From the IMG/VR virus record IMGVR_UViG_3300022555_000003, positions 1-64,000 of that record: 64,000 bases of DNA; one strand, given 5' to 3'. Below, piece by piece: positions 1 to 35,652 of this stretch. Position 1 is the stretch's first letter. Each line of letters begins with the position of its first letter. The notes below the pieces were generated by a model, which saw nothing but the letters and a program-made list of their open reading frames with translations, was not told where the DNA came from and did not search any database. Both the position numbers and the translations under genes were made by a program. This stretch comes from a virus. Lineage: Duplodnaviria; Caudoviricetes.

Positions 1-329
1 GTATTGGTACTTTAAGTCCATCATATAAATTACATGTAACTGGTGATGTATACAATGCAGGTTTTAAATATTTAACTAATAGACTTGGTGCTAGTGCATG
101 GAATAGTAATGGAATACAATTTGGAATGGATGGTATATATTATGGATCAATTGGTTTACAAAATGATTTGTCAATACGAACAAATACTACATTAATAGTT
201 GATGGTAATGTTGGTATTGGTACTACAACTCCACTAGCTAAGTTAGATGTAAACGGTGTTATTGGATATACTGGAAGTTCAAATTATCGATTGGTATTAC
301 CAGTTGGAACAAACCTTTACGCAACTTAA
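1..329 (+). CDS. Tail fibre protein, C-terminal part (5'-partial)
   Basis: Frame of the 126..329 ORF is open from the window start (IGTLSPSYKLHVTG...); GNVGIGTTTP..KLDVNG beta-repeats typical of phage fibres. Confidence 0.7.
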   Translation, partial: IGTLSPSYKLHVTGDVYNAGFKYLTNRLGASAWNSNGIQFGMDGIYYGSIGLQNDLSIRTNTTLIVDGNVGIGTTTPLAKLDVNGVIGYTGSSNYRLVLPVGTNLYAT

Positions 330-371
330 TAAATAGTAGTGTAGTAAGTCCTAGTACAAAATTAATTGTAA

Positions 372-428
372 ATTGAAGCAATTAAAGAACTTAATCAGAA
401 AGTAAAAGACCTAGAAGGAAAACAATAA
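372..428 (+). pseudogene. Relic of an intramolecular chaperone (peptidase S74-type) C-terminal coiled coil
   Basis: Orphan frame IEAIKELNQKVKDLEGKQ* preceded by stops; its TAA overlaps the next ATG (TAATG). Confidence 0.55.
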
Positions 429-1150
429 TGTCAGTATTAACTTCTAATTTACCACTTAGTGGAAATCCAATCAAAATAAGTCAAGCAATCTTAGACCAAG
501 GAATAAGTGGTGGTACAGCACAAAATGACATGAATAGTTCTGGATTTAGAACAGCACTTGGATTATCAGGTAGAGCTTCAGGCAGCCAAATTTCAATGGG
601 TGAAGGATTTGTTTATGATAGTGTGACTACACCTGGAGGACAGAATTTACTTACAGCAGGTTATAGTGTTAACTTTGGTATATGGGGAAATGCTTATTGT
701 AATATTACCCCTAATGCATCAACAGTAGTTAATCAAGATGGAACACCCGCAAGTTATATATATGGACAAGGATCAGGAACACCATATGGTCTCATTTATA
801 CTGATATTTCTCTAGGAGTAGCTGGACCATATTATTGTAGTGTATATGCAAAAGCAAATACATCAGCAATTATGACATTGAACTGTTGGACTGATGGTAA
901 TAGCGAAGTTAATACAGATTTTGATTTGACCCTTAGAACTACAGCATTTAATATTGGAGCAGGAATATATATGGAATATTGTGGGTTTGGTTGGTATCGA
1001 TGTATACAGTTAATTGCTGCTAATGCCTCTAATCTCATACACTTTAGAATTTGGCCTGGTCAGAGAGTTGGTCCTGGTAACACTATAGGTACTTATTTGT
1101 GGGGAGCACAAATAAATACAAGAAGTGTTCAAAATTTCCTACAAGTATAA
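428..1150 (+). CDS. Tail-associated protein with probable carbohydrate-binding-like domain
   Basis: GWYRC and YLWGAQI motifs common in phage fibre/adhesin domains; context. Confidence 0.5.
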   Translation: MSVLTSNLPLSGNPIKISQAILDQGISGGTAQNDMNSSGFRTALGLSGRASGSQISMGEGFVYDSVTTPGGQNLLTAGYSVNFGIWGNAYCNITPNASTVVNQDGTPASYIYGQGSGTPYGLIYTDISLGVAGPYYCSVYAKANTSAIMTLNCWTDGNSEVNTDFDLTLRTTAFNIGAGIYMEYCGFGWYRCIQLIAANASNLIHFRIWPGQRVGPGNTIGTYLWGAQINTRSVQNFLQV

Positions 1151-1187
1151 ATAAAATATAGTTAGATTTTAATAAGCATAAATATTA

Positions 1188-1481
1188 ATGGAGAAACAAA
1201 TGACTGTTGAAATTAAAATTGCCCGTTACGAACTTTACCCTACTGATGAGCCTACTAGTTTCTGTGTAGGATTCCAGGTTTCAGTAAATTCACGTAGTAT
1301 GTATCAAGATACCCAAGTGTCACTTGAAAATGCAAAAGATAAAACAGAAGATGAAATTGTATCAATTGCATTCGTTCAAATTGAAGAATCAATTTCAGCA
1401 TGGATTGAGAATGCTAAATCTAAACCTAGCGTATTAGGCACAACATTTACACCACCTGTATCTACTGGAAATATTAATTAA
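1188..1481 (+). CDS. Hypothetical protein (possible tail fibre assembly protein)
   Basis: 97 aa ORF after ATAAATA motif, in fibre module. Confidence 0.45.
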   Translation: MEKQMTVEIKIARYELYPTDEPTSFCVGFQVSVNSRSMYQDTQVSLENAKDKTEDEIVSIAFVQIEESISAWIENAKSKPSVLGTTFTPPVSTGNIN

Positions 1482-1500
1482 TTATGAAAAAGGAAAAAAT

Positions 1501-1866
1501 ATGGTACTTACTATTGCCCAACTTAAAGAAGCTGACGTAGTATTGAATAAATTGATGAATTCTGAACTCGCTGCGAAAGTTAGTTTTCGTCTTAGTAAAC
1601 TATTAGCGATTATTTCGCCTGAGTTAGTTAGATTTGAAGATTCACGTAAAAAGCTATTTGAAAAGTACGGCGAAGTAGATGGCGAACAAATGAGAATTCC
1701 AGCAGCAAAAGAACAAGAGTTTCTTTCTGAATGGACTGCATTACTTGCAGAGACAGTCGAGTTTTCTCAAATCCAATTCACATTAGAAGATCTTGGAGAC
1801 GTAAAGCTCACAGCTATTGAAATGAGAGCATTTACTCCTTGGATCAAAGAAGAAGTTACAGCTTAA
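1501..1866 (+). CDS. Hypothetical phage protein (coiled-coil, tail module)
   Basis: RBS aaggaaa; 121 aa. Confidence 0.5.
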   Translation: MVLTIAQLKEADVVLNKLMNSELAAKVSFRLSKLLAIISPELVRFEDSRKKLFEKYGEVDGEQMRIPAAKEQEFLSEWTALLAETVEFSQIQFTLEDLGDVKLTAIEMRAFTPWIKEEVTA

Positions 1867-1892
1867 TTTTCAATTCAATAATTACTGTTTTA

Positions 1893-1923
1893 AGAACCGC
1901 AACCTAATACGTTGCGGTTTTTC
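1893..1923 (+). terminator. Intrinsic terminator
   Basis: aaccgcaac-ctaatac-gttgcggtt hairpin followed by T run. Confidence 0.8.
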
Positions 1924-1944
1924 AATTAATATGCTATACTATAA

Positions 1945-2904
1945 TTGATGAGTGTTATACAAACAGTTTTAGATGCGTGGTCTGGAAGTAGGCCAACAAA
2001 GCGATCTGCTAGTGGATGGATTTCTGGTAATTCGTCTTGCTGCACTCATCGTGGTGAATCTAAAGATACACGAGGTCGCGGTGGATTCATTGTAGATACC
2101 AATAAAATATCATATCATTGTTTTAACTGTAATTATACAACCGGATATACTATAGGTGGTAATATTAGTGCTAAATTTTCGAGATTGTTGTTGTGGATTG
2201 GTGTATCTGAACAAGAAATAAACGCAATAAAAATCGAAGCACTTAGAGATAAGCTTGAAAATTTTGAAGAAACTGAAAAAACTGAAATAAAAATTGTTGA
2301 AAAAGCATTACCAATTGACAGTGTTTTAATAAATCACAATGATCATAAACCTTATATTGATTATATTAACAAACGTGGATTAACTAAATCATCATATCAA
2401 TTTTATGTTAGTAAATCTTTACCTAATAAGATTATTATACCATTTAGATTTGAAGGCAAAAATGTTGGCTTCACAACAAGAACAATTGATGGTAAGTTAC
2501 CAAAATATATGAATTATATAGGCATGCCATATGTATTTGGACTAGATATGCAACAGAACAAGTATACTTGGGTACCTGTTATGGAAGGTATATTTGATGC
2601 TATTAGCATTGGTGGGTGCGCAACTCTTGGTAATGAAATAAATGAAACACAAGCTGATTTAATAGACAATCTAGGTAAAACAGTAGTGATAGTTCCAGAC
2701 AGAGATAAGCCAGGTAATAAGTTAATAGAATCAGCAATTAATTTTGGTTGGAAGGTTTCTTTTCCAGAATGGCCAAATAATATTAAAGATGTAAATGATG
2801 CAGTAATTAAGTATGGTCCGCTGTTTGTACTTAAACATATATGGGAAACAAAAGTTGAAGGTGCCACATCGTTAAAACTTCGATTGAAGCTACAGAAGTT
2901 TTAG
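1945..2904 (+). CDS. DNA primase (T4 gp61-like)
   Basis: N-terminal Zn ligands (CC..H, HCFNC); TOPRIM motifs EGIFDA and PDRD; C-terminal KDVND. Confidence 0.85.
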   Translation: MMSVIQTVLDAWSGSRPTKRSASGWISGNSSCCTHRGESKDTRGRGGFIVDTNKISYHCFNCNYTTGYTIGGNISAKFSRLLLWIGVSEQEINAIKIEALRDKLENFEETEKTEIKIVEKALPIDSVLINHNDHKPYIDYINKRGLTKSSYQFYVSKSLPNKIIIPFRFEGKNVGFTTRTIDGKLPKYMNYIGMPYVFGLDMQQNKYTWVPVMEGIFDAISIGGCATLGNEINETQADLIDNLGKTVVIVPDRDKPGNKLIESAINFGWKVSFPEWPNNIKDVNDAVIKYGPLFVLKHIWETKVEGATSLKLRLKLQKF

Positions 2905-3341
2905 TGGACAGTAAATTCCCAAGTATCAATTGCATTTATAGTATTAATTTTTTGTTTTATAACATCAAAGTTTAATGTATTCCACAACCCAGGGTGTAAT
3001 GGTTTTGGAAATTCACCTAACTTAACCCAACAATATCCGTGATGTTCTTCATTTAATACTGGTACAAACTCAAATGGAACAACACAAATATATGTTATAA
3101 ACTTAAAATTGTCATCATCAGATGTATATGTTTCTATAGGTATCAATTTATTAGGAACTGGTATACTTCCTATCTCTTCGTTGAATTCTCTAAATAGTGT
3201 TTCTTTGATGCTTTCGTCAGATTCTCGTCGTCCTCCAACTAGTCCCCAAGTACCTATTTGTTTTTTACTACGTAATAAATATAAGCATCTTTGTGTTTTA
3301 GAACAAAAACATAGAGCGCCAACTGCAATTATCTGTTTCAT
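2901..3341 (-). CDS. Nudix hydrolase
   Basis: Nudix box GG(x5)E(x7)REFNEEIG. Confidence 0.9.
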   Translation of the reverse strand: MKQIIAVGALCFCSKTQRCLYLLRSKKQIGTWGLVGGRRESDESIKETLFREFNEEIGSIPVPNKLIPIETYTSDDDNFKFITYICVVPFEFVPVLNEEHHGYCWVKLGEFPKPLHPGLWNTLNFDVIKQKINTINAIDTWEFTVH

Positions 3342-3347
3342 TTAAAA
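3326..3347. repeat. 22-bp inverted repeat, copy 1 (partner 7490..7511)
   Basis: caattatctgtttcatttaaaa is the reverse complement of ttttaaatgaaacagataattg; covers the Nudix start. Confidence 0.85.
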
Positions 3348-3400
3348 TATTTATCAGCTAAATATAGTATAGTAGAGTATGTGTATCTAGATTTGAATTC

Positions 3401-3665
3401 AAAAAGGAAAATATGAGATTTATAATTTTATTACTGGCTATATCGACATTATATTCACAAGAAAAATATGAAGCAATAACATCTGGTTCATTTGAGCAAT
3501 CAAAAATTGTCAATTCAAAAATTTCAATGACAAAAAGTGTTGGATCTGCAAGTGGTCCATGCACTCCATATATGGATTGGCATACCAATTTAACAACAAA
3601 AGGCGTGGCGTATTGCATTGGTGTATCTGGTATTTGGTCACAAGAAATTATATTATCTCTTGCTG
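3401..3665 (+). repeat. 265-bp inverted repeat, left copy (partner 7802..8066)
   Basis: Identical by eye to the reverse complement of 7802..8066 except a 3-nt patch (gtg vs tca); includes RBS and first 84 codons. Confidence 0.95.
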
Positions 3666-3919
3666 CTACAGCTATAACTACTCTACCTGATGCTACAGGA
3701 ATAACTAATAGCATTCGTAGGGTTATTTGTTTAAGTACTGCTGCGGGTACTTGTACGGTAAATACAACCGGTAGCCAAACTATTATTTCTGCTACTGGTA
3801 GTGCTACTACTTTTAATTTAGCTGCTGGTACCACTGCGGTTCTTATGGCTGATTATGGTAGTTTGACACATCCTGTAAATTCTGCTGCGGGATGGTTAAG
3901 ATTGGCAGATAATCAATAG
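3413..3919 (+). CDS. Signal-peptide protein, variant A
   Basis: MRFIILLLAISTLYSQ signal-like N terminus; Thr/Ala-rich C terminus; RBS aaaggaaa. Confidence 0.7.
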   Translation: MRFIILLLAISTLYSQEKYEAITSGSFEQSKIVNSKISMTKSVGSASGPCTPYMDWHTNLTTKGVAYCIGVSGIWSQEIILSLAATAITTLPDATGITNSIRRVICLSTAAGTCTVNTTGSQTIISATGSATTFNLAAGTTAVLMADYGSLTHPVNSAAGWLRLADNQ

Positions 3920-4004
3920 ATAGACGATATGAATGGGTTATATACTAGTACTAAAAATGTATGAAGATAAGTAAAATCGCAAATTGTGTTAAAATATTTA
4001 CTAA

Positions 4005-5393
4005 TTAGATTACAAGTCTCCAGTTTAAATTTGTATATTCTCCATCAACAGCTTTAACCCATTCATTTTCAACAAACTTATATTGTTTTCCACTTATTAA
4101 ATTAGTTACAACTTGTATAGATGAAATATTATTACTATCAAATACAACTATAAATTTAGTACCATCATATTCAATAATATCATTTCTATTAGCAATAGTT
4201 TCGTGTCCATTTATATTCCATCCAACAGACGATTCACTATCTGATATATTACCTAAACTGTTAAGTAATAAATATCTCTGCCCAAGTATTACATTAGGTA
4301 GGCCATTTATACCTGGTGCTACTCTAGTTGGATCTATTACAGCCGTTATTGCTGTCAAAGTATTAGCTGGCAAAGTATGGGTGTCAACATTGAATAATAG
4401 AACAGTATCATCAGTTGGACTAATAGCAACAGTTCCAACTATTTCACTAGTTGGGTCAGTTTGATCAATCATTCTAAGTTGTGTGATTCCATTTCGTATA
4501 GCACCATACTTATCAATACATGCACTCCATGAAGATAGATCTCCGGTAATAATTTGTGTTTGAATATCAGTAGGATCAGGAACAACATTCACTGAATTAT
4601 TTTTAACTAATTTAACTTCACTATTATTTAAAAATATTCCATAATTTTGAAATGTAATACATGGCCTAGTTCCAAGTAATAGATCATCTGATGAAACAAA
4701 GTCTGATAAATTTCCACGTGGATCAAAAATTCCTGCAATAATTTTTAATATAACACCCATCTTAGTTACTTTAGCTGGCATACTTAACCAAACTGGTAAT
4801 TCAAATTCAAGTGTAGAAATATCAATTTGATCTTCTGTACCTGCTGGAATAGATTTACTTGACCAAGTAGTACCAGTTAATCTCAATGTAGTTAAACTTG
4901 ACCAATCCCAATAATTATCAGTACTTTGAATTTCAATACTTGGATTGAATAACACTAATACTTGTTCTAATATTTGAAATTTTTGATCTGTATTACTAGT
5001 CCAAATATCTGCTTTAACTGTTAAGGTATAAGGAGCAGGCATAATTCTTTCAACAGTATAAGCATTTCCTTGTTCGGGTAGATAACTATCAGTTTCGGAA
5101 TTATATTTTTTGGTACGTACAGACAGTCTTTCTGTAAAAGTAGGACTTTGTAGTCGATCTTGATCATATCTTATATTAGTAATATAAATGCTTATTAATG
5201 GAGTACTTGAAATACTATTTTCACTATTTCGCTTGATGATAGTTGCAGCTTGTCTAGATGAATCTCCATAAGTAACTGGAATTTGTAGTAATGTTCCATC
5301 AGAATATTTCACTTGAAAGTTACTAAGTATTCTAATTATCTGTGTTAAAAAGCGGCGCAATTGTGCGTCATAAAAATAAGTTTCTAGGGCCAT
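4005..5393 (-). CDS. Tail completion / sheath stabiliser (gp15-like)
   Basis: YFYDAQLRRF...IPVTYGDSSRQ...PAPY.L...DIWTSNTDQKFQILEQ motifs; neck/tail context. Confidence 0.7.
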   Translation of the reverse strand: MALETYFYDAQLRRFLTQIIRILSNFQVKYSDGTLLQIPVTYGDSSRQAATIIKRNSENSISSTPLISIYITNIRYDQDRLQSPTFTERLSVRTKKYNSETDSYLPEQGNAYTVERIMPAPYTLTVKADIWTSNTDQKFQILEQVLVLFNPSIEIQSTDNYWDWSSLTTLRLTGTTWSSKSIPAGTEDQIDISTLEFELPVWLSMPAKVTKMGVILKIIAGIFDPRGNLSDFVSSDDLLLGTRPCITFQNYGIFLNNSEVKLVKNNSVNVVPDPTDIQTQIITGDLSSWSACIDKYGAIRNGITQLRMIDQTDPTSEIVGTVAISPTDDTVLLFNVDTHTLPANTLTAITAVIDPTRVAPGINGLPNVILGQRYLLLNSLGNISDSESSVGWNINGHETIANRNDIIEYDGTKFIVVFDSNNISSIQVVTNLISGKQYKFVENEWVKAVDGEYTNLNWRLVI

Positions 5394-5433
5394 GCTTATA
5401 TTTATCAGAAATTAAATACAAGGATTAGATGAT

Positions 5434-6069
5434 TTATATTGTTGCTGCTACAGTAAAGTAACTCAATTCTCCATCTGATGCTAGCGAACCAAATGGTGTC
5501 ATAATCTTTCCCATATAATCATACGGACCAACGAAAAAAGATCCCCAGAAAGCCGGAAGCGTGAAATTGCTGACAAACATACCATTAATAGAGTACATAT
5601 GTTTCTGCACAGCATCACAAATCTCTAGACGATAGACTCTAATTAATCCAGTATCTGAACGAAGTACTTGGTAAGTGCCCTTAGGGTTAACTAAATATTC
5701 CATGATTTCGTGTCCAAGTACATAAGCCGGCGGGATGTTCGATACTTTTATTTTGTCCATAAAGATCAATATAATCGGCTTGCCATATGCATCCACAAGT
5801 CGTATAGCCACGTATCCTGTGTAATTCCACGATACATATTCAGTATCCATAATGCGAACTACTATCTCTCCAAAGCGCATGTCATTTTCGATTATAGTAT
5901 AGCGAAGACTGGCTGTTATTCCCCATGCTGGGTAGAAATCTTGTGTGAGTTGTTTTTGTACTACATTTACAGCATCTGACCCGAGTTTAACAGTTCCAAT
6001 ATCCTGAACGACAATTGTATGTTGTGCAAATGCACTTAATACCAATAACATTAGCAAGGCTAGTTTCAT
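5434..6069 (-). CDS. Secreted zinc-metallopeptidase-like protein
   Basis: Signal peptide MKLALLMLLVLSAFAQ; GHEIMEYLVNP and EICDAV motifs. Confidence 0.55.
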   Translation of the reverse strand: MKLALLMLLVLSAFAQHTIVVQDIGTVKLGSDAVNVVQKQLTQDFYPAWGITASLRYTIIENDMRFGEIVVRIMDTEYVSWNYTGYVAIRLVDAYGKPIILIFMDKIKVSNIPPAYVLGHEIMEYLVNPKGTYQVLRSDTGLIRVYRLEICDAVQKHMYSINGMFVSNFTLPAFWGSFFVGPYDYMGKIMTPFGSLASDGELSYFTVAATI

Positions 6070-6134
6070 TTCTATACCGCTCCTAATTTAGATTTGTGAT
6101 AATTATCACAAATAGTAGATTACACTAATATTTA

Positions 6135-7445
6135 TTAGAAATCTGCATCGGGTCGTAATAGTTTACTAAGAGATTGTTTGCTTGCTTCGATTTGCCCTGA
6201 ATCATTTGTAAATGTATTATTATTGTTAATAAAAGTATCGCGTTGGGTCTGTCCTTCTCCATTTGTTAATGAAGTTCTAACAGAATCAGCACACTTAATC
6301 CAATGTGTGCCATTGAATTTAAATAGTCTATTTGGTAAAAAATCTAAGCGCAAGAAAAAATCTCCAGTAGTTGGACTAGAAGGAAAACTAGTCCCACTCG
6401 TAGTATAATAATCATTTGGAGATTTACCATCTCCAACTAAGTATCCAGCTACAATTTCATCAGGACTGTCAGTTGGTTTAAGTGGTAATGAATTTTTGTC
6501 TCCATCTAACATTGGAGGAATCCATAAACTTGAAGTATCATATCCACTTAGTGGGACAGCTTTTTCAGCTTCATCAATTACCGCATTATTAATATTTAAT
6601 TGTGTATTACCAATTCCTAATAAATCAGATAATGTTGAATTTGTTCCTGGTTGAATTTGTTGTAATATTTGTTTATATTCTTGACTATCAACTAATGGAA
6701 TAGCTTTAACTCTCCACAAATGAGGCCACCAAGTTGGACTATAGCCATTTGCACTTTTCATAGCATCTTGTATTACATAAAATCGTTTAAGTGCAACTGG
6801 TACAGTTTCATCTAATGAGTAAAAATCTTTCAAGTGAGGTAATTCTAATACATCTCCTGACATTAATTTTCGTCCAAGTTGTTGGACCATAGTATTTAAA
6901 TGAAATGTTATAAAAATTGTATCATTGGTTAAAAATAATCCAAATTGACTTAAATTAAAATCTAAATCTTGAACTTGATAAGAACCACGCAATGTATATA
7001 TTGAACTATCGTATTTTCTATCTCTATTTTCTAGTAACAGTAAATCTTGTATATTTTGTGCAGATTGATTTAAATAATTAGGTAATGTGGAATCATTAAT
7101 ATCACTAAACCATATTATAGTTCCAGAAGTTACTATTGATGTAGTTGATTGAGTAAGTGTAACAGTTGTTGGAGTTTTAACGCCAACTTTAGTAGTAGGT
7201 GGAATACCAATGCCAAAAACAAATTGCCCAATATTTATTGTAGATGTATCTGTAAAAGTTAATGTGGTACCAATTGTAGATTGATTAACTGTAACTGTTA
7301 GAGATGTATTATTATTTTGAGGTCCAAGATACATATGAACATTCATATCGGTTGCGCCCATTGTGAATTGTTCATTGATTGATCTATCAAAAAATTTAAA
7401 ATCGTCAGTCCGTTTTCCACCCTGCCAAAGCGAGATACGTGGCAT
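6135..7445 (-). CDS. Neck / head-closure protein (gp14-like)
   Basis: MPRISLW..., ENRDRKYD, DFNLSQFGLFL, GDVLELPHL, WPHLWRVK motifs. Confidence 0.65.
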   Translation of the reverse strand: MPRISLWQGGKRTDDFKFFDRSINEQFTMGATDMNVHMYLGPQNNNTSLTVTVNQSTIGTTLTFTDTSTINIGQFVFGIGIPPTTKVGVKTPTTVTLTQSTTSIVTSGTIIWFSDINDSTLPNYLNQSAQNIQDLLLLENRDRKYDSSIYTLRGSYQVQDLDFNLSQFGLFLTNDTIFITFHLNTMVQQLGRKLMSGDVLELPHLKDFYSLDETVPVALKRFYVIQDAMKSANGYSPTWWPHLWRVKAIPLVDSQEYKQILQQIQPGTNSTLSDLLGIGNTQLNINNAVIDEAEKAVPLSGYDTSSLWIPPMLDGDKNSLPLKPTDSPDEIVAGYLVGDGKSPNDYYTTSGTSFPSSPTTGDFFLRLDFLPNRLFKFNGTHWIKCADSVRTSLTNGEGQTQRDTFINNNNTFTNDSGQIEASKQSLSKLLRPDADF

Positions 7446-7489
7446 ATTATAAATTACTCCTCTATTACTATATATTTATCATATAAATG

Positions 7490-7511
7490 TTTTAAATGAA
7501 ACAGATAATTG
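7490..7511. repeat. 22-bp inverted repeat, copy 2
   Basis: Duplicate of Nudix 5' end (ATGAAACAGATAATTG). Confidence 0.85.
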
Positions 7512-7596
7512 TAAGAGGTAAGAACATCCCTAACGGGAGTTTGGTCTGGGCCGGCGCGGTTACGGCCGTGACAAAAAGAATGAGGAAAAGTTTCAC
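7492..7596 (-). pseudogene. GC-rich fragment of a signal-peptide gene
   Basis: RBS aaaggag + GTG, VKLFLILFVTAVTAPAQTKLPLG...; only 34 codons. Confidence 0.4.
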
Positions 7597-7727
7597 GATT
7601 ACTCCTTTGGTGAACGTTTTTCTATATTTCATCTCGCGAAATAACACAAAAAAGATGGCCTGGCGGCAGATGCTCAGGTACCGTACTCCGTATTTACGGT
7701 GGCTATGGAACGATCACCTTGCGTAAT

Positions 7728-8057
7728 TCAATTCGCCCAAACGTAGCCGTACCGTTTGCGTGCAATTGATGTTCCATCAGATAGCTCAGTACTTGCATGA
7801 CCAGCAAGAGATAATATAATTTCTTGTGACCAAATACCAGATACACCAATGCAATACGCCACGCCTTTTGTTGTTAAATTGGTATGCCAATCCATATATG
7901 GAGTGCATGGACCACTTGCAGATCCAATGATTTTTGTCATTGAAATTTTTGAATTGACAATTTTTGATTGCTCAAATGAACCAGATGTTATTGCTTCATA
8001 TTTTTCTTGTGAATATAATGTCGATATAGCCAGTAATAAAATTATAAATCTCATATT
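7728..8057 (-). CDS. Signal-peptide protein, variant B (same N terminus as 3413..3919, different C terminus)
   Basis: First 84 aa shared except SV vs II; diverges after IILSLA; ATG at 8057 with RBS. Confidence 0.7.
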   Translation of the reverse strand, partial: NMRFIILLLAISTLYSQEKYEAITSGSFEQSKIVNSKISMTKIIGSASGPCTPYMDWHTNLTTKGVAYCIGVSGIWSQEIILSLAGHASTELSDGTSIARKRYGYVWAN

Positions 8058-8066
8058 TTCCTTTTT
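7802..8066 (-). repeat. 265-bp inverted repeat, right copy
   Basis: See 3401..3665. Confidence 0.95.
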
Positions 8067-8112
8067 AGTAATCAAGTACTATATATTTATCATAGTTATG
8101 ATAAATAATTAT

Positions 8113-8874
8113 ATGGCTACTCTCGACAGCAAAAAACAAGAAATCTTTGAATATGTATTAGATAAACTGGGACGAGGAATGGTAGACGTAGAACTCGATC
8201 CATCCCATTTAGAGATGGCATATAAAAAAGCGATACGTACTTACAGAGGCCGTGCTTCAAATGCAGAAGAAGAATCGTATGTATTCTTAGATGTTGTAAA
8301 AGATGTACAAGATTATATATTACCTGAAGAAGTATCCACAGTTAGACAAATTTTTAGACGTACAATAGGTGCAACTGGAGAAAATGCAGGTGATAGCTTT
8401 GAACCATTCCAAGCTAGTTTCGTTTCATCTTATTTACTTACTGCGGCAAATGGCATGTCTGGGTCATTACTAACTTTTGATTTATATAAACAGTTTCAAA
8501 CGTTGACAGCAATGATGTTTGGAGCACATGTTTTATTCACATTTAATCCAGTAACTAAAAAATTATCTTTGGTAAGAAGACCAACTGGTGATTTAGAAAG
8601 AATGATGTTATGGGTATATAATATGAAGCCAGAAATTTACTTAGTATCTGATCCTAAAATAGTAAATTGGATAATGGATTATACTTACTCAACATCTAAA
8701 TTTACATTAGGCGAAGCAAGAAGTAAGTTTAATCAAATCAATGGACCACAAGGTGGAACATCTTTAAATGGTAATGACTTAAAAGCCGAAGCCAAAGAAG
8801 AAATTGCATTGTTAATGGAAGATTTGAGAAACTTAGTTGATAATTCTGCCCCACTATCTTTTATTATTGGATAA
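8113..8874 (+). CDS. Neck protein (gp13-like)
   Basis: Likely start MATLDSKK after ATAAATA; LG.GMVDVELD motif and C-terminal GPQGGTSLNG..LK.EA. Confidence 0.75.
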   Translation: MATLDSKKQEIFEYVLDKLGRGMVDVELDPSHLEMAYKKAIRTYRGRASNAEEESYVFLDVVKDVQDYILPEEVSTVRQIFRRTIGATGENAGDSFEPFQASFVSSYLLTAANGMSGSLLTFDLYKQFQTLTAMMFGAHVLFTFNPVTKKLSLVRRPTGDLERMMLWVYNMKPEIYLVSDPKIVNWIMDYTYSTSKFTLGEARSKFNQINGPQGGTSLNGNDLKAEAKEEIALLMEDLRNLVDNSAPLSFIIG

Positions 8875-8910
8875 GTTGAGTATTATCACAAAATATGTTA
8901 TACTAAATTA

Positions 8911-9594
8911 ATGAACTTATATGGAATAGTTGGATTTGCTGGCTCTGGTAAAGATACTGTTGCAAATTACCTATGTGAAAAATACAGACACAAAAAAGTA
9001 ACATTTGCTGGACCAATCAAAGACATGTTAAGTGTATTATTTGGGTGGGATCGTGCGTTAATTGAAGGCGATACCACCAAGAGTAGACTTTGGCGCGAAG
9101 AAGTAGATGAATGGTGGTCAAAAAAACTAAATATACCAAATTTTACACCAAGATGGGCTATGCAGCACCTTGGGACAGAAATAATTCGTAAAAATTTTAA
9201 TGATGATTTATGGGTATCATTGGCCGAGCGTACTTTTTTAAAATTTGATATAGATGATAACATAATTATAAGCGATTGTAGACACCCAAAAGAGTTTGAA
9301 TTAATTTCTAAATATAATGGTAAACTTATAAAAGTTATTAGGAACTCGGCAGCTAACGCATGGGATAAGTTAGCTGAATATCAAAATTTAGCTGACGAAG
9401 TTACATTAAAGAAAATGAATGATGAGAAACGCACTATGCAGCATTTATTTCCATATGTTCATAATTCTGAGTGGGCATGGGTTGGTAGGAAAACTGATTA
9501 CATAATTACAAATTTTGGAACAGTAGATCAACTACACAACGAAATAGATAAGTTTATTTTTTCTGAATTTGCAGTATCTAAAAATCAGCACTAA
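8911..9594 (+). CDS. Deoxynucleoside monophosphate kinase (gp1-like)
   Basis: GFAGSGKDT P-loop; TPRWAMQHLGTE; IISDCR; HNSEW. Confidence 0.9.
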   Translation: MNLYGIVGFAGSGKDTVANYLCEKYRHKKVTFAGPIKDMLSVLFGWDRALIEGDTTKSRLWREEVDEWWSKKLNIPNFTPRWAMQHLGTEIIRKNFNDDLWVSLAERTFLKFDIDDNIIISDCRHPKEFELISKYNGKLIKVIRNSAANAWDKLAEYQNLADEVTLKKMNDEKRTMQHLFPYVHNSEWAWVGRKTDYIITNFGTVDQLHNEIDKFIFSEFAVSKNQH

Positions 9595-9934
9595 TTCTAT
9601 TATCAATCCACGGTAATCCTAGACTAAGTTCTATATTACAATTTGAACATACTGTTTGTAAATTATTACGTTGAACGTTTGACATTTTGTTGTCTTTATA
9701 ATATACAGTAAATACTTGAGCGTATCTACTTGTGTGTCCACATCTATCACATTTTAATTTTTTCTTATAACCTGATTGTTGCCATTTTGTAATAGAAGGT
9801 TTTATTTTCGAGTCTTTCATACATTGCAAACATTTACTTCTATAATATATTTTTCCATCTCGTAAATAATTAATTGCTTGTGGACGGATATTACATATTT
9901 TACAAATTGGTCTGTTCATAAAAATATTTATCAA
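9578..9934 (-). CDS. Zn-binding HNH-like hypothetical protein
   Basis: CxxC pairs and N.QTVCSNCN. Confidence 0.55.
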   Translation of the reverse strand: MINIFMNRPICKICNIRPQAINYLRDGKIYYRSKCLQCMKDSKIKPSITKWQQSGYKKKLKCDRCGHTSRYAQVFTVYYKDNKMSNVQRNNLQTVCSNCNIELSLGLPWIDNRISADF

Positions 9935-10017
9935 AAACCTTTAAAGGTCAACCTATCTTCGTTAAGACGCTACTTTTTGGACATTTGCGCTAAATAATAC
10001 GTAAGGAGATATATTAT

Positions 10018-13000
10018 ATGGCACTTGTTTCAGCAGGCGTTCAAGTATCTATTGTAGATGAAAGTACTTATTCGATTTCTACACTTGGTACAACACCTCT
10101 GGTTGTAGTTGCAACTTCCGAAAATAAATCTAATCCATCAGGTAATTTAGCCGCATATACAACAGCAGCTAATGCTGGAGAAGTATTTTTGGTTACTTCA
10201 CAGAGAGAATTAGTAACAAATTACGGACAACCAGAATTTTTAGTTAGCAATGGTACTCCAGTACATGGATATGAATTAAATGAATATGGTTTATATGCAG
10301 CTTATAGCGCACTAGGTGTTAGTAATGCAGCCTATGTATTAAGAGCTGATTTAGATTTAAACCAACTTTCAAGCAGCTTGGTTCAACCATCAGGACCCCC
10401 AGCTAATGCTACTTTATGGCTAGACACTGTTAATTCTAAATTTGGTATGTTAGAATGGAATAGTTCAACTGGTTTTAGAGAGATTAACACTTCTAGAATT
10501 AGTGGTGATGGAAAATTATTCGTAATTACATCAACAAATCAGATTAGTGGTAATGAACCTGTTACAAATATTGGTAAACAAGGTGACTACGCTATTGATG
10601 CAACAAATATTGATAACCCTGCATTTTATAAAAATGCTAGTGGATGGGTAGAAGTTGGATCTGCAGATTGGGAAATGAGTTGGCCAACAGTATCAGGTAC
10701 TTCAACATATACACATTCTTCAACTAACGTAACTTTTACAATTACAGGAGCTTCATCTGGTTCTCACGTAATTACTGTTCGAAACGGTAATACAGTATCA
10801 AATATTGCGGCTACTATTAACACAGCGGCTATTACAGGTATTACAGCTAGTGTAACTACAGCTGGTTACTTACAAATATTTTCAAATAGCGTTGCTTCTC
10901 CAATTACTTTATCAAGTTCTTCATCTATTTTAACAAGTCTTGGTATTCCAAATGGTGGTGGATCTTTCAGCTGTCCAAAATACATAGCAAGCAAGCATAC
11001 ACAAGTTCCGGCTGGTGGTGCATGGTCAGCTAATGGTTCAGATCCTAGACCAACAGGTAGTATTTGGTTCAAAACTACTAGCCCAAACAACGGAGCTAGT
11101 ATTAAAGTAAATAGATATTCATCTGCTACACAAACTTGGACTAGTTTGACAACTCCAATTTTCCCTAGCGATGTAGCTATTATTAATGATCCAGTATATG
11201 GAGATCCAAGTGGCGGTGGATTAGGTATTCCTGCATCTTCAACATATATTCAATCATCTATTACAACAGATGTAACAACTTCTCAACCATTATATACTTT
11301 TAAGTTATTTGATCGTGTTGCTGGAGTATCAAGCGTTACTGGTTCAACAGTAAGTCCTACTTTCGTTAACGCAAGTAACGTTATACCTAAGACTTATACA
11401 TTTACATTAAGTGCAAGTACATTACAATCTGGATCATGGGCAATGAGTTCACCTACAACAGTTAGTTTTACTGTTGGAAATAGTGCAACTGCTAATGCAG
11501 GCGTAATTATTACTGCTATTAATAATGCTGGACTTGTAAACGTCAACGCAGAATTAACACCAGCCAACAAAGTTAAAATTACACATGCTGCTGGTGGCGT
11601 TATGGAACTACATGATGGTGCTAATACTCCATTAACAGTGTCTGGTATTACTATTTCAAGTACAGGTGCTCGTGAGAGTGATGTTAATGCTGGTAATATT
11701 TGGATAAGCAACTGGAGACCAGCACTTTATACTGTTGGTAGTTCTCAACCAACAGCTGATCCGCTAAATGGTACTTATTGGTACTATAATAACACTGTAG
11801 AATATGATATTCTTATTAACAATGGTGCTGCATGGAAAGGATATTTACTTGGTGGAACAGATGCCAGGGGATATACACTTTCTTTAACAGATCCAGCAGG
11901 TCCAATTGTTAGTGCTAGTATGCCTACTTCAAATAGTGCTGGAGATCCTTTAGTTGGTGGCGATCTTTGGGTTAATACAAGTGATTTTGAAAATTTCCCA
12001 AGAATTTATCGCTACAATGATATTTCAACAACATGGATTTTAATTGATAACACAGACCATACTTCAGAAAATGGTATTATATTTGCTGATGCTAGATGGG
12101 ATGGATCAGGAACAGTAGATCCAATCACTGATCCTCTACCAACAATTGCAAGCTTACTAAACAGTAACTATGTAGATAGTGATTGTCCAAGTTATGCTTT
12201 ATATCCAAAAGGAACATTACTTTTCAACACTCGCAGATCAGGAATGAACGTAAAGCAATTCGCAGTTAATTATTTTCCAGCAGGCGGACCAGCAGTAACA
12301 AGTACTTGGGTTTCCGCTAGTGGTAATGATTCAAACGGTGTTGCATATCTTGGACGTAGAGCCCAACGTGCTATTGTTGTATCCAAAATGGCTTCAGCAG
12401 TTCTTGCTAATACACAACTATTAGAAGAAACACGCGACTTCAACATTATTTGCGCTCCTGGATATCCAGAGTTAGGTAATGTATTAACTCAATTAAATGT
12501 TAATAGAAAAGAAACAGCTTTTGTCTTACTTGATACACCAATGAGATTAGCTGCTACTAGCAATAATTTATTAGCATATGGTAGTAATTTAGGTGTAGCT
12601 GATGGAACAGATGCTGCGGCCGGTGATGCTCTAATTAATTACGAGTATTCAGCAGCTTATTATCCAAGTGGTTATACACAGAGTTTGGCAGGTGACTTCG
12701 TAGTTGTTCCTCCAACACACATGGCTTTACGTACAATAATTAGAAGTGATCAAAAGAGTTATCCGTGGTTTGCACCAGCTGGAACACGTCGTGGTACAGT
12801 TGATAATGTAAGTGCAATTGGTTATATTGACGGACAAACTGGATCATTTAAGAGTATTGGTGTAAATAACGGATTACGCGATGCATTGTATCAAGGTAAA
12901 GTTAATCCAATTACATTCTTAACTAATTCAGGTATTACAATTTACGGCCAAAAGACAAGATCAGCAAATACTAGTGCATTAGACAGAGTTAATGTTGCTA

Positions 13001-13302
13001 GATTGATCGTATACTTGAGACGTAAGGTTGATTTGATTGCTAGAGATTTCTTGTTTGAACAAAACGATACAGTAACAAGAAAAGAAATCAAAAATGCAAT
13101 TGAAAAAGAACTTATCAGCATTAAATCACAACGTGGAATTTATGACTACAGCGTAATTTGTGACCTCTCAAATAATTCTACAAATACTATAGACAGAAAT
13201 GAACTATATGTAGACGTAGCAATTGAACCAGAAAAATCTGTAGAATTCATTTATATTCCTGTGCGTATTAAGAACACAGGTGATATTCAAGCTGGCTTAT
13301 AA
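10018..13302 (+). CDS. gp18: Tail sheath protein (1094 aa)
   Basis: ALVSAGVQVSIVDES N terminus; PWFAPAG..RG, INPI, ALDRVNVARL and EFIYIP.R C-terminal sheath motifs. Confidence 0.95.
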   Translation: MALVSAGVQVSIVDESTYSISTLGTTPLVVVATSENKSNPSGNLAAYTTAANAGEVFLVTSQRELVTNYGQPEFLVSNGTPVHGYELNEYGLYAAYSALGVSNAAYVLRADLDLNQLSSSLVQPSGPPANATLWLDTVNSKFGMLEWNSSTGFREINTSRISGDGKLFVITSTNQISGNEPVTNIGKQGDYAIDATNIDNPAFYKNASGWVEVGSADWEMSWPTVSGTSTYTHSSTNVTFTITGASSGSHVITVRNGNTVSNIAATINTAAITGITASVTTAGYLQIFSNSVASPITLSSSSSILTSLGIPNGGGSFSCPKYIASKHTQVPAGGAWSANGSDPRPTGSIWFKTTSPNNGASIKVNRYSSATQTWTSLTTPIFPSDVAIINDPVYGDPSGGGLGIPASSTYIQSSITTDVTTSQPLYTFKLFDRVAGVSSVTGSTVSPTFVNASNVIPKTYTFTLSASTLQSGSWAMSSPTTVSFTVGNSATANAGVIITAINNAGLVNVNAELTPANKVKITHAAGGVMELHDGANTPLTVSGITISSTGARESDVNAGNIWISNWRPALYTVGSSQPTADPLNGTYWYYNNTVEYDILINNGAAWKGYLLGGTDARGYTLSLTDPAGPIVSASMPTSNSAGDPLVGGDLWVNTSDFENFPRIYRYNDISTTWILIDNTDHTSENGIIFADARWDGSGTVDPITDPLPTIASLLNSNYVDSDCPSYALYPKGTLLFNTRRSGMNVKQFAVNYFPAGGPAVTSTWVSASGNDSNGVAYLGRRAQRAIVVSKMASAVLANTQLLEETRDFNIICAPGYPELGNVLTQLNVNRKETAFVLLDTPMRLAATSNNLLAYGSNLGVADGTDAAAGDALINYEYSAAYYPSGYTQSLAGDFVVVPPTHMALRTIIRSDQKSYPWFAPAGTRRGTVDNVSAIGYIDGQTGSFKSIGVNNGLRDALYQGKVNPITFLTNSGITIYGQKTRSANTSALDRVNVARLIVYLRRKVDLIARDFLFEQNDTVTRKEIKNAIEKELISIKSQRGIYDYSVICDLSNNSTNTIDRNELYVDVAIEPEKSVEFIYIPVRIKNTGDIQAGL

Positions 13303-13324
13303 TTAGACCTAAGTAGTAGAACAC

Positions 13325-13352
13325 AATGGCGCATATTAAGTTATGCGCCATT
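13325..13352. terminator. Palindromic terminator-like hairpin; inverted copy of 14943..14970
   Basis: aatggcgcatattaagttatgcgccatt followed by T run. Confidence 0.8.
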
Positions 13353-32798: not shown

Positions 32799-33767
32799 AT
32801 GGCGACACTCGCAGAAATCCGCGCTAAACTTCAAGCGCAAGACAATAAATCAGACAAAAAAGGTTTTGGAGATAAGCAACTTTATCCGCATTGGAATATC
32901 AATGAGAATGAATCGTGCTTACTAAGGTTTTTACCTGACAAGAATACAAAGAATTCATTCTTTTGGGTAGAACGTGCATTAATTAATCTTTCATTCCCAT
33001 CAGTAAAAGGTGCTTCTGAAGCAAAGACAGCATATGTAAAAGTTCCATGTATGGAAATGTGGGGAGAAACTTGCCCTGTACTAACAGAAGTTCGTCCTTG
33101 GTACAAGGATGCTTCATTAAAGGAACAAGCTGGTAAGTATTGGAAGAAGCGTACTTATTTGATGCAAGGGTTTGTACGTGAGAATCCAATTGAGGAAGAA
33201 ACACCTGAGAATCTAGTTAGACGGTTTATCATCAGCCCGCAGCTTTTTTCACTTATTAAGGCGGCACTACTTGATCCTGAATTAGAAGAATTACCAACAG
33301 ATTTTAATCACGGATTAGATTTCCGTATTAATAAGACAGCTGGTAAGGGTGGTTATTCTGATTACAATACAAGCAAATGGTCCAGAAAAGAATCAGCACT
33401 AACTGATAAAGAACGTGCAGCTATTGAACAATATGGATTATTTGATTTATCGGATGGTTTACCTAAGAAACCAAGTGACAAAGAAGTAAAGATCATTAAA
33501 GAAATGTTCGAAGCTTCTGTAAATGGCGATATGTATGATCCCGAAAAGTGGGGAGAGTATTTTAAGCCAGGTGGGTCATATGTTGCAGAAACAGTAGATA
33601 CATCGTCTGCTAAGGCAACAACTCACACAACTCACACAACTCAAGCAGCACCTGTTCAAGAAGACAGTGTTGCACCTGTGGTAACTCCTACTACAGCACC
33701 TAAGTCAACTCAAGCAACTGATATTCTTAAGATGATTAAAGAACGTCAAGCAAACGCAAAGAAGTAA
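32799..33767 (+). CDS. gp32: Single-stranded DNA-binding protein
   Basis: LRFLPD, VPCMEMWGETCP, YWKKR.Y, G.DFRINK, YS.Y..SKW; acidic/low-complexity tail. Confidence 0.92.
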   Translation: MATLAEIRAKLQAQDNKSDKKGFGDKQLYPHWNINENESCLLRFLPDKNTKNSFFWVERALINLSFPSVKGASEAKTAYVKVPCMEMWGETCPVLTEVRPWYKDASLKEQAGKYWKKRTYLMQGFVRENPIEEETPENLVRRFIISPQLFSLIKAALLDPELEELPTDFNHGLDFRINKTAGKGGYSDYNTSKWSRKESALTDKERAAIEQYGLFDLSDGLPKKPSDKEVKIIKEMFEASVNGDMYDPEKWGEYFKPGGSYVAETVDTSSAKATTHTTHTTQAAPVQEDSVAPVVTPTTAPKSTQATDILKMIKERQANAKK

Positions 33768-33783
33768 TTAATAGCAAACATAG

Positions 33784-33812
33784 AATGGCGTATGAAACTT
33801 ATACGCCATTTT
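33784..33812 (+). terminator. Intrinsic terminator
   Basis: aatggcgtat-gaaactt-atacgccatt + T run; same family as 13325 and 14943 hairpins. Confidence 0.8.
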
Positions 33813-33832
33813 CATATTAGGAGAATATAACT

Positions 33833-34939
33833 ATGGCTGGAAAGCCTTTTGGTGTAGATAGATTTAGACGTGAATTAACAAAAAGTATTGAAGGCCTTGG
33901 TATTGGTTTTCATGATCCAACAGATTGGATTTCTACTGGTAGTTTTGTATTAAATGAATTAATTTCTGGACACTTTGATAAAGGTGTGCCACTTGGTAAA
34001 GTAACAATCTTTGCAGGAAGACCAGCATCAGGAAAAAGTCTAATTGTTTCAGGTAATATTATCAAAAATGCTCAAGCACAAAATATTTTTGTGATCATGA
34101 TTGATACAGAAAATGCATTAGATGAAGATTGGCTTAAAAAGTTAGATGTAGATACAAGTGAAGGTAAATTACTTAAACTTAGTATGTCAATGATTGACGA
34201 TGTTGCTAAAACTATCAGTACTTTTATGACAGACTATAAAGCAACTAGCGAAGAAGACAGACCAAAAATTTTATTTGTTGTTGATAGTTTAGGTATGTTA
34301 ATGACGCCAACAGACGTTAAACAGTTTGAATCTGGCGACATGAAGGGCGATATGGGTAGAAAAGCCAAAGCATTAAAGGCACTAGTTACTAACTGTGTTA
34401 ATATGTTTGGTGCTTATAATGTAGGAATGGTATGTACAAATCATACTTATCCAAGCCAAGATCCATATAGTCCTGATGATATTGTATCAGGAGGAAATGG
34501 ATTTTTATTTGCAAGTTCGATTGTAGTTGCTACAAAACCACTTAAATTAAAAGAAGATGCTGAAGGTAATAAAGTACCCGATGTACTTGGAATCAGAGTT
34601 GGTTGTAAGGTAATGAAGACACGTTATAATAAGCCATTTGAAACATGTGAAATTAAAATTCCATGGGTTGGTGGTCTTGATCCATATTCGGGATTATTCG
34701 AATTATTTGAAAAGAAGAACCTAATCGAGAAAGAAGGCAACAGATATAAATATATTGATTTACAAGGTGATGAACATAAATATTATCGAAAAGAGTACCT
34801 AGTAAATACAGATTCAATTTTAGATTTGATTATGGGTGAGTATGCTGAGAAGAAAAAGCTTCTATCACCTACACAAGAAGACATAGTTGGAATTGATGAG
34901 TCTGTAATTGAAGAAAGCGAACCAACTGACGATGAGTAG
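33833..34939 (+). CDS. uvsX: RecA-like recombinase
   Basis: DWISTG, GRPASGKS Walker A, IDTENA, VVDSLG, MGRKAK, NHTY, KTRY. Confidence 0.92.
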   Translation: MAGKPFGVDRFRRELTKSIEGLGIGFHDPTDWISTGSFVLNELISGHFDKGVPLGKVTIFAGRPASGKSLIVSGNIIKNAQAQNIFVIMIDTENALDEDWLKKLDVDTSEGKLLKLSMSMIDDVAKTISTFMTDYKATSEEDRPKILFVVDSLGMLMTPTDVKQFESGDMKGDMGRKAKALKALVTNCVNMFGAYNVGMVCTNHTYPSQDPYSPDDIVSGGNGFLFASSIVVATKPLKLKEDAEGNKVPDVLGIRVGCKVMKTRYNKPFETCEIKIPWVGGLDPYSGLFELFEKKNLIEKEGNRYKYIDLQGDEHKYYRKEYLVNTDSILDLIMGEYAEKKKLLSPTQEDIVGIDESVIEESEPTDDE

Positions 34940-34952
34940 GAGATTAACTTAA

Positions 34953-35198
34953 ATGACGGTGGACCCAATTGAAATTGCAGCTGAGTTATGGCGCAATGTT
35001 TTAGAATATGTTCCAATGCGAGACAGAGATGCCGCAGCTGAACAGTTTATAGTAGCATTGCGCGGCTTGAATTTTTCTGATGATGAACTTGATTCTTTAG
35101 CAGAACATGACCGGTATATTAATACGGCATTGATTCAAGATAATGAAGAAAACGATTTTTCAAACGATGATTTTGACGATTTAAACGACAACGAATAA
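34953..35198 (+). CDS. Hypothetical acidic protein
   Basis: 81 aa between uvsX and uvsY; RBS ggag. Confidence 0.55.
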   Translation: MTVDPIEIAAELWRNVLEYVPMRDRDAAAEQFIVALRGLNFSDDELDSLAEHDRYINTALIQDNEENDFSNDDFDDLNDNE

Positions 35199-35199
35199 A

Positions 35200-35652
35200 A
35201 TGTGGCTATCACGTATAACAAGTGATCTAGGAAATATACCAGACTTTTTAGATCACTTTAGGGTTGAGCTTGTTAACGCTCAAATTGAGGTTGCTATAAA
35301 AGGCAACCTTGAAAGAAATTTATCAACTTTGCCTGGTATAACAGAATATCGATTTGGACAGCTACAAACTGTTGAAAGTGTATTAAATTATTTAAATATT
35401 AAACTCAAGAAACTTAAAAATAAACATTTTAGACTGTACCTTGAAAAGTATGCTAAGGCATTAACTAGTAGAGATGCTGAAAAATATTCAGATGGTGAAG
35501 ACGATGTTTGCGACTTAGAAGAAGTTATTAATCAGGTTGCTTTACTACGTAACCAATATTTAGGAATTATCAAAGCATTAGAAACAAAAAATTGGATGCT
35601 TGGTCACATAACAAAACTTCGTTGTGTTGGTATTGAAGCAGTAGAATTATAG
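35200..35652 (+). CDS. uvsY: Recombination mediator
   Basis: Coiled-coil; SRDAEKYSDGE, LRNQYLGIIKALE motifs; follows uvsX. Confidence 0.8.
   Translation: MWLSRITSDLGNIPDFLDHFRVELVNAQIEVAIKGNLERNLSTLPGITEYRFGQLQTVESVLNYLNIKLKKLKNKHFRLYLEKYAKALTSRDAEKYSDGEDDVCDLEEVINQVALLRNQYLGIIKALETKNWMLGHITKLRCVGIEAVEL

Follow-up and report, generated by a model that had tools for sequence, protein, structure and literature searches.

Two orientations of a repeat-bounded neck-gene segment among assembled contigs of an uncultured freshwater jumbo phage

We examined the first 64,000 nucleotides (nt) of the IMG/VR virus record IMGVR_UViG_3300022555_000003 (positions 1 to 64,000, hereafter the window), the source of which is an uncultured, lytic freshwater jumbo phage of the T4 superfamily, and in which an inverted repeat with 265-nt arms brackets a 4.1-kb segment carrying neck genes. 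Among public assemblies of the same phage, this segment is found both in the arrangement of the window and inverted. These findings are probably best explained by a recombinase-free inversion polymorphism, arising through ordinary homologous recombination between the two arms and with probably little effect on the phage. The arms, the segment and the genes on which the comparison of contigs depends are as follows.

2901..3341, - strand: NUDIX hydrolase gene, directly after gp15 in relatives
3401..3665, + strand: left arm of the inverted repeat, with the ribosome-binding site (RBS) and codons 1-84 of ORF168; marker GTG at 3537-3539
3413..3919, + strand: open reading frame (ORF) ORF168, with a leader and small Cys/Trp module (residues 1-84) and an 85-residue C-terminal module
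3666..7801, no strand: 4.1-kb segment seen both ways in public assemblies
4005..5393, - strand: gp15-like tail sheath stabiliser (PF16724, E 3e-25)
5434..6069, - strand: ORF211, a leader-bearing accessory gene between gp14 and gp15
6135..7445, - strand: conserved virion protein in the gp14 position (PHROG 11591)
7728..8054, - strand: ORF108, with an N-terminal module as in ORF168 and 24 unrelated residues
7802..8066, - strand: right arm of the inverted repeat, with the RBS and codons 1-84 of ORF108; marker at 7928-7930
8113..8874, + strand: gp13-like head-tail adaptor (PHROG 211, PF26809)

A nearly identical inverted repeat within two genes

A reading of the window made from the sequence alone (hereafter the sequence-only reading) had described two inverted 265-nt copies differing at 3 nt, and alignment of 3401-3665 with the reverse complement of 7802-8066 bore this out, with 262 of 265 positions identical. 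The limits of this core also agree with its claim that each copy carries the RBS and first 84 codons of a gene, as the core runs from 12 nt 5' of the ATG, including the RBS AAGGAAAA, through codon 84. From a repeat search of the window, longer arms of 302 nt at 94% identity were obtained (3401-3702 and 7765-8066), and in a self-BLAST of the whole 242,080-bp record the core pair (E 1e-132) was the most similar among dispersed repeats longer than 200 nt. The three mismatches of the core are contiguous, reading GTG at 3537-3539 vs TCA in gene orientation in the other arm (7928-7930 on the + strand), and they provide a marker that specifies Ser42-Val43 in the GTG arm vs Ile-Ile. Within the 37 nt inward of the core, 22 positions are identical (anchored binomial p ~2e-4), which hints at an older homology extending beyond a recently homogenised core; local alignment past the repeat was no better than that of shuffles. 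Repeat pattern scans of viral and metagenome contig collections returned no match, near-identical records being possibly excluded there, and megablast of a phage collection likewise returned none.

Both arrangements of the segment among public assemblies

Contigs of the same phage were found via members of the ORF168/ORF108 protein cluster, and apart from the marker their identity is 99.9-100%. The arrangement of the window occurs in at least 20 of them, including scaffolds of 110 kb and 69 kb, as well as two MEGAHIT k141 contigs (L030 and L037) that cross both arms and carry, as in the window, Ser-Val in the left arm and Ile-Ile in the right. The inverted arrangement was identified in eight contigs, which come from three assembly pipelines and several of which are 8-11 kb long. 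Four of these (ERZ1426676, ERZ1426557, ERZ1426812 and ERZ1426843) show the order gp13 (-), ORF168 (+), gp15 (-), ORF211 (-), gp14 (-), with ERZ1426676 and ERZ1426557 spanning the whole inverted segment into the ORF108 tail; on a 918-nt Logan contig (L045; SRR3657441) the joint of gp13 flank, repeat and ORF168 is present by itself. The opposite side of the inversion is represented by ERZ1426560, reading NUDIX (-), ORF108 (+), gp14 (+), ORF211 (+), gp15 (+), ORF168' (-), and by L025 and L032, which contain the joint of NUDIX, repeat and ORF108. The breakpoints of all inverted contigs fall inside the repeat, and their gene spacings of 71, 43, 282 and 85 nt are exactly those predicted for a reciprocal exchange within it. 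The flip of 3666..7801 that the sequence-only reading had predicted is in this way seen at the level of contigs.

Closer examination of the marker also gave a hint of exchange between the arms. Every one of the eight possible combinations of outer flank, marker and inner flank is represented. In MEGAHIT k141 contigs, the gp13-side arm carries Ile-Ile in four samples (L030, L031, L034 and L035) and Ser-Val in one (L027), and a single 141-mer reaches from the flank across the outer 136 nt to the marker. The marker swap of L027 is the strongest assembler-independent hint of exchange between the arms. Logan contigs from four runs, belonging to four studies, end 30 nt into the repeat from every side (at 3430/3636 and 7831/8037) and contain no joints; in these runs the 265-nt piece has ~1.5-2.4x the depth of its flanks. 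This depth confirms two copies of the repeat and carries no information on orientation.

A number of observations weigh against the presence of two isomers. They would fit a genome fixed in the window's orientation, in which the repeat is genuine but assembly artefacts account for the inverted contigs and for most of the marker shuffling, an alternative that we consider possible though rather unlikely. The evidence comprises contigs rather than repeat-spanning reads, and the Logan contigs, all of which break at the repeat, cannot with k=31 phase 265 nt. Both traversals of an inverted repeat are valid paths through an assembly graph, and the inverted contigs could represent wrong choices among them; similarly, the identical-arm scaffolds L024 (Ser-Val/Ser-Val) and L028 (Ile-Ile/Ile-Ile) could result from assembler bubble collapse. 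Among the k141 contigs compared at the DNA level, those that join an outer flank to unique inner sequence (L027, L030, L031, L034, L035, L037 and L038) all have the window's orientation. Among the inverted contigs, the last 50 nt of L032 (3406-3455) match nothing in the phage and constitute a chimeric tail, a warning on that ENA assembly set, and L045 is a short k=31 contig. The five inverted ERZ1426xxx contigs are known from their gene layout and are possibly MEGAHIT assemblies of Buck et al. 2021 (default k list, 2 x 150 bp reads; PMC8121793), and the split within this set, five inverted to three not, resembles a coin toss. In addition, 16 contigs longer than 50 kb with the window's form of ORF168 favour one dominant arrangement.

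A fixed orientation would nevertheless have to accommodate eight inverted contigs from three pipelines with exactly the predicted spacings, as well as L027, where the other arm's marker beside the gp13 flank needs real linking reads. Furthermore, at the recombination rates of T4-type phages, total absence of the inverted isomer would need counter-selection. Taken together, we consider it reasonably likely that the two isomers are real.

The sequence-only reading had also raised the possibility that the repeat itself is a misassembly, of which a chimeric join or a duplicated contig end would be examples. Consistent with such an origin, the inverted terminal repeat of the record has a 127-nt exact core of k-mer size, and its ends are artefact-prone. 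However, each arm, together with its own flanks, is seen again at 99.9-100% identity across more than 30 contigs, which were produced by several pipelines in four studies, and the repeat unitig has ~2x the depth of its flanks; these results rule out a misassembly for practical purposes and leave it with a negligible probability.

The window's arrangement in comparison with relatives

A comparison of synteny, as proposed in the sequence-only reading, was performed with 13 related IMG/VR loci (37-91% amino-acid (aa) identity). In every one of the 13, the genes from the sheath to the deoxynucleoside monophosphate (dNMP) kinase and gp13 lie on one strand and gp14-gp15-NUDIX on the other. Because all 13 relatives show it, the divergent layout of the window represents the family norm, and its orientation, with gp13 divergent from gp14-gp15-NUDIX, is, judging by gene order, the ancestral one. 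Inversion would co-orient the gp14- and gp15-like genes with the gp13-like gene, as the sequence-only reading had stated; this departs from the normal order of the family and does not bring back a canonical arrangement. In T4, genes 13, 14 and 15 are co-oriented. The inverted arrangement was also considered as the ancestral state and rejected, since only that of the window gives each of the two gene cassettes described below its own exact flanking repeat and fits the 13 relatives.

ORF168 was found between gp15 and NUDIX in none of the 13 relatives, in which NUDIX begins at or within the end of gp15. The NUDIX start in relatives apparently lies inside the 3' end of gp15, in overlapping frames (e.g. 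near 11392 of L008); in the present phage the insertion of ORF168 parted gp15 and NUDIX, and the NUDIX N terminus is different and shorter, with its own ATG. In the closest relative (L004, ~80% nt identity), which lacks both cassettes, the equivalent of window position 7487 is joined directly to that of 8080, with a 48-nt gp14|gp13 spacer.

Across the family, the junctions gp13|gp14 and gp14|gp15 act as hot spots for insertion. Visual inspection of translations suggested HNH-type nuclease-like ORFs at 5812-6636 of L004 (gp14|gp15, where ORF211 sits in the window) and at 3178-3921 of L013, and a 3.4-kb block of accessory genes occupies a neck-gene junction in L022 (5668-8692). Also observed in L004, beyond gp15, was a GC-rich region (8290-13543) in which large leader-bearing proteins (817, 690 and 243 aa) replace NUDIX and the primase; either the contig is chimeric here or the accessory region differs strongly.

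Lineage-specific cassettes and a possible origin of the repeat

Judged against these relatives, both repeat-bearing genes are lineage-specific cassettes. The ORF168 cassette comprises 647 nt (3354-4000) and the ORF108 cassette, which is absent from L004, 611 nt (7484-8094); with 7484-8094 removed, the spacer is colinear with that of L004. Each cassette is flanked by its own exact direct repeat, and the ORF108 cassette contains in addition a short copy of sequence from the NUDIX gene.

3342..3353, + strand: 12-nt direct repeat TTAAAATATTTA, copy 1, flanking the ORF168 cassette
3989..4000, + strand: 12-nt direct repeat, copy 2
7466..7483, + strand: 18-nt direct repeat TACTATATATTTATCATA, copy 1, flanking the ORF108 cassette
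8077..8094, + strand: 18-nt direct repeat, copy 2
7484..7511, + strand: 28-nt copy (27/28) of the NUDIX 5' untranslated region with the first 16 bases of the coding sequence, located at the far end of the ORF108 cassette; original at 3326-3353 (-)

The 12-nt repeat has two copies only in 242 kb, and the 18-nt repeat has no other exact copy in the record, where the only other sites have three mismatches. Both repeats overlap a (G/C)xTAAATA motif, which is found a short distance upstream of both cassette genes as well as of NUDIX, gp15, gp14, gp13 and the sheath gene, and which we take to be a candidate promoter on its resemblance to the T4 late promoter TATAAATA. A scan for sigma-70 promoters was uninformative (44 sites vs 35.5 expected).

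In the sequence-only reading, a 22-bp pair (3326..3347 and 7490..7511) was noted that inversion would turn into direct repeats, like a target-site duplication. The pair is real and would become direct repeats 630 nt apart upon inversion; it is longer than was stated, extending to 28 nt (27/28 identical, 3326-3353 vs 7484-7511) that are unique in the genome, and over a longer span it covers 52 nt at 85%. A target-site duplication does not account for it, as each cassette already has its own exact flanking repeat of 12 or 18 nt. The 28-nt piece is better read as a scar, which would indicate that the right cassette came from the NUDIX site, because the cassette carries this NUDIX 5' piece in a circularly permuted order. 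When the ends of the right cassette are joined via one 18-nt copy, they align over their full length with the NUDIX-ORF168 spacer (62 identical columns over 68 nt), with a score of 101.5 vs 44 +/- 5 for shuffles (maximum 59). An inversion by staggered breaks was also considered as the source of the repeats and rejected, since it predicts the 28-nt piece beside gp13, where it is not.

We propose that two cassettes may have inserted, in opposite orientations, at hot spots flanking gp14-gp15, namely gp15|NUDIX for ORF168 and gp14|gp13 for ORF108. Each insertion would have occurred by recombination at a short late-promoter-like sequence, leaving the exact 12- and 18-nt direct repeats. The right cassette would have left the NUDIX site as a circle or tandem copy and re-entered the gp14|gp13 spacer, in the opposite orientation, by recombination at the shared motif. 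The circular intermediate in this scheme is inferred from sequence layout alone, a point that counts against it.

Homologous recombination as the probable source of the inversion

The sequence-only reading saw no invertase and suggested that UvsX and UvsY could perform the inversion. Searches for serine and tyrosine recombinases (PF00239 Resolvase and PF00589 Phage_integrase) found no match in the 242-kb record, their controls matching in 12 and 14 of 14 genomes, so that the lack of a visible invertase extends from the window to the whole record. The record is estimated to be 74% complete and a recombinase could sit in the missing part, which weighs against a recombinase-free mechanism. The homologous-recombination proteins were recovered as suggested, together with a gp32-like protein.

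32799..35652, + strand: gp32-like single-stranded DNA-binding protein, UvsX-like recombinase and UvsY-like mediator, the proposed homologous-recombination module

Of these, UvsX matches PHROG 97 (E 2e-63), with PF00154 above cut-off, and the UvsY-like protein matches PHROG 231 (E 1e-12); Pfam PF11056 gave no match for UvsY, a result that is uninformative because the control matched nowhere.

Replication of T4-type phages is recombination-dependent, and recombination between exact repeats a few hundred bases long takes place readily in them. Given 265-nt arms that are 99-100% identical and inverted 4.1 kb apart in a phage with gp32, UvsX and UvsY, homologous recombination between the arms would swap sequence, and resolution as a crossover would flip 3666-7801. 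Natural populations would then hold two genome isomers, with the ancestral one commoner, owing either to a low frequency of inversion or to a slight disadvantage of the inverted form.

Inversion leaves every gene of the segment its upstream sequence, both cassette genes keep their RBS and start, and no protein is changed beyond the two-residue marker. The swap of C termini between two promoters, to which the sequence-only reading had drawn attention, is for this reason of little consequence, the spacers that are swapped both having a late-promoter-like motif. Because these motifs are similar, no regulatory effect of the flip is expected from the sequence. The flip is probably a near-neutral by-product of cassette duplication rather than a programmed switch. 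We consider it quite improbable that it acts as a recombinase-free switch at the population level, altering the timing or strength of full-length ORF168 vs short ORF108 through the swapped upstream regions and also co-orienting the neck genes with the late module, with selection keeping the repeats identical and the fitness of the isomers differing by host or conditions.

A programmed switch of the Gin/Cin/Hin or shufflon type might alternate the C termini of a fibre-tip-like protein or alter expression. Such a switch would be in keeping with the shared N terminus and differing C termini inside a segment bounded by inverted repeats, as in Mu G and P1 C, and with the relationship of the ORF168 C-terminal module to the C-terminal domains of tail-spike-like proteins. 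Nevertheless, the lack of a detectable serine or tyrosine recombinase in 242 kb renders it highly improbable, as do arms composed of 265 nt of coding sequence rather than ~26-34 bp crossover sites, the presence of an RBS and ATG on each arm with both ORFs intact in either orientation, an ORF108 tail of 24 residues with no recognisable domain, and the status of both cassettes as recent inserts absent from relatives.

Should reads confirm the recombinase-free inversion, this phage would provide a clean natural case of a lytic jumbo phage with two isomers of its neck block generated via its own homologous recombination, and would show how such a repeat can originate by repeated insertion of one small cassette at promoter-like motifs in a conserved structural module. 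The repeat also accounts for the conflicts and breaks among assemblies of this phage at this place, and suggests that, where synteny points to an "inversion" in a metagenomic phage genome, repeats exceeding the assembly k-mer in length should be looked for.

The ORF168 and ORF108 proteins

Both proteins begin with a hydrophobic leader (MRFIILLLAISTLYSQ), a putative signal peptide by its look. A word-indexed search found no relative of ORF168 outside its own cluster. In exhaustive HMMER searches, residues 84-168 matched the C-terminal 85 residues of two GDSL-esterase proteins, one of 635 aa (81% identity) and one of 611 aa (52%), and residues 35-84 matched a ~60-residue Cys/Trp unit that is repeated fourfold in a 325-aa protein. 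ORF168 is, on these matches, a mosaic of two modules, the joint of which coincides with the inner end of the DNA repeat. ORF108 is probably an N-module-only or truncated paralogue; no recognisable domain was identified in its 24-residue tail. A 142-aa relative has a weak match, below cut-off, to the phage depolymerase C-terminal beta-sandwich PF25692, and a low-confidence Atlas model of ORF168 resembles fibre-tip domains, while a search of ORF168 against PDB sequences gave no match; the likeness of its C-terminal module to spike or fibre tips offers leads only.

The 635-aa GDSL-esterase protein is encoded on a 29.7-kb Logan contig (L047; SRR29078105) of another uncultured phage, within a tail-spike-like cluster (153-8399) where it adjoins a beta-helix protein and a 1189-aa protein. 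This phage is a possible donor lineage of the ORF168 C-terminal module.

The ORF168/ORF108 protein cluster consists of six sequences, comprising 168-aa and 108-aa forms each with Ser-Val and with Ile-Ile, a 175-aa form and a 183-aa form. Upon inspection, the 175-aa form was found to have seven extra residues (MITKKEN) from the gp13-side spacer fused to the body of ORF168, and the 183-aa form is a read-through gene call on L045 and no sequence variant. Elsewhere in the record, at ~145,237-145,632 (L003 1513-1908) and within a GC-richer patch, a leader-bearing ORF of 131 aa (MKLILFLALAGLAHGQ...) has its RBS and start region in common with the cassette genes (82% identity over 38 nt). This ORF and the cassette genes may form a family of small secreted accessory proteins.

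Other features of the segment and of the record

The record starts at the window's first base and has 33% G+C. Following the gp13-like gene are the dNMP kinase and then the tail sheath gene. The segment 3666..7801 itself contains the ORF168 C-terminal module, gp15, ORF211, the gp14-position gene, a 253-nt GC-richer stretch and the ORF108 tail. Two further features are listed here.

1945-2904, + strand: primase
7512..7764, no strand: GC-richer stretch (~46% vs 33% G+C in the genome)

The searches made of 7512-7764 identified no convincing ORF, RNA family or homologue. Its interpretation as a decayed C-terminal module was rejected on tblastn values of E >=0.04 in a 370-nt target. ORF76 (7496-7726) has no homologue in the searches and is called as a gene in no assembly; Rfam over 2800-9000 gave no match up to E 1, no tRNA was found in the region, and RNA folds of 7490-7770 on the two strands had z-scores of -0.5 and -1.0.

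The gp15 and gp13 labels assigned in the sequence-only reading were confirmed by the family matches listed above. The gp14-like label is based on position alone: the probability from hhalign to T4 gp14 was 0.3%, no Pfam family and no PDB sequence matched the protein, and its AlphaFold model (pLDDT 36, from a 4-sequence alignment) is unusable. The nearest cultured relatives of this protein are encoded by jumbo phages such as PA5oct and Atu_ph07 (37-45% identity). For ORF211, which carries a hydrophobic leader, the Atlas model is confident (pTM 0.83), and its structural neighbours comprise unnamed proteins of phages and bacteria, together with domains that occur joined to DUF4062, phosphoesterase or PLD proteins.

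The record is classed by IMG/VR as having inverted terminal repeats. These correspond to window positions 1-233 and record positions 241848-242080 (233 nt at 97%, with the 127-nt exact core), and by BLAST, bases 203-372 match a second inverted copy ~1 kb from the far end; several other dispersed repeats are present in the record. The record ends are probably assembly break points in repeated sequence rather than true genome termini.

Comparison with known systems

In the Mu G/Gin and P1 C/Cin systems, a serine invertase acts at ~34-bp sites, the constant part holds the only promoter and start, and inversion picks the C terminus. The present segment is similarly bounded by inverted repeats and has genes with shared N-terminal and differing C-terminal parts; unlike those systems, it combines none of an invertase, short sites, and a single promoter and start. 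With these three defining features examined and found lacking, it is not a switch of the Gin/Cin type.

A closer likeness is to systems in which inversion proceeds by homologous recombination between inverted repeats, as for the L/S isomers of herpes simplex virus 1 and the plastid inverted-repeat flip-flop (PMC3147054), or for a 24-kb flip/flop region of Saccharomyces bounded by homogenised gene pairs (PMC9731477). Common to these systems and the present phage are near-identical inverted repeats of duplicated genes, the lack of a dedicated recombinase, and gene products unchanged by inversion; on the present reading, two orientations in natural populations and arms homogenised by exchange would probably be shared as well. 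In contrast to their kilobase arms, those described here comprise 265 nt and lie among the neck genes of a lytic T4-superfamily jumbo phage, for which both orientations are known from assemblies only. Among T4-related myoviruses, the Campylobacter group II phages CP21 and CP220/CPt10 differ by inverted blocks, for which border repeats were proposed as recombination sites (PMC4546147). As in the present case, the inverted blocks include structural genes; whereas those phages are distinct from one another and have long arrays of short units and modules of 20-90 kb, here one gene-derived pair bounds 4.1 kb within a nearly clonal population.

For the cassettes themselves, the nearest parallel is provided by the PeSL (early promoter and stem-loop) cassettes and mini-circles of phages RB49 and phi1, for which Arbiol et al. 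2010 proposed and partly demonstrated a circle logic (PMC2839356; PMC4122927). PeSL cassettes have an early sigma-70 promoter and a stem-loop and occupy hyperplastic regions, whereas the motif here is late-promoter-like (xTAAATA) and the sites lie inside a conserved structural module; no terminator-like hairpin was found at the cassette ends, where the trailer folds no better than shuffles. Here, too, it is a circularly permuted layout that is read, from the sequence, rather than circles. As with PeSL, ORFan cassettes are present or absent between close relatives, are intergenic and are flanked by direct repeats of promoter-like sequence, and the layout fits excision of a circle followed by re-insertion at another copy of the motif. 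If confirmed, these results would extend the mini-circle/PeSL idea beyond T4-like coliphages.

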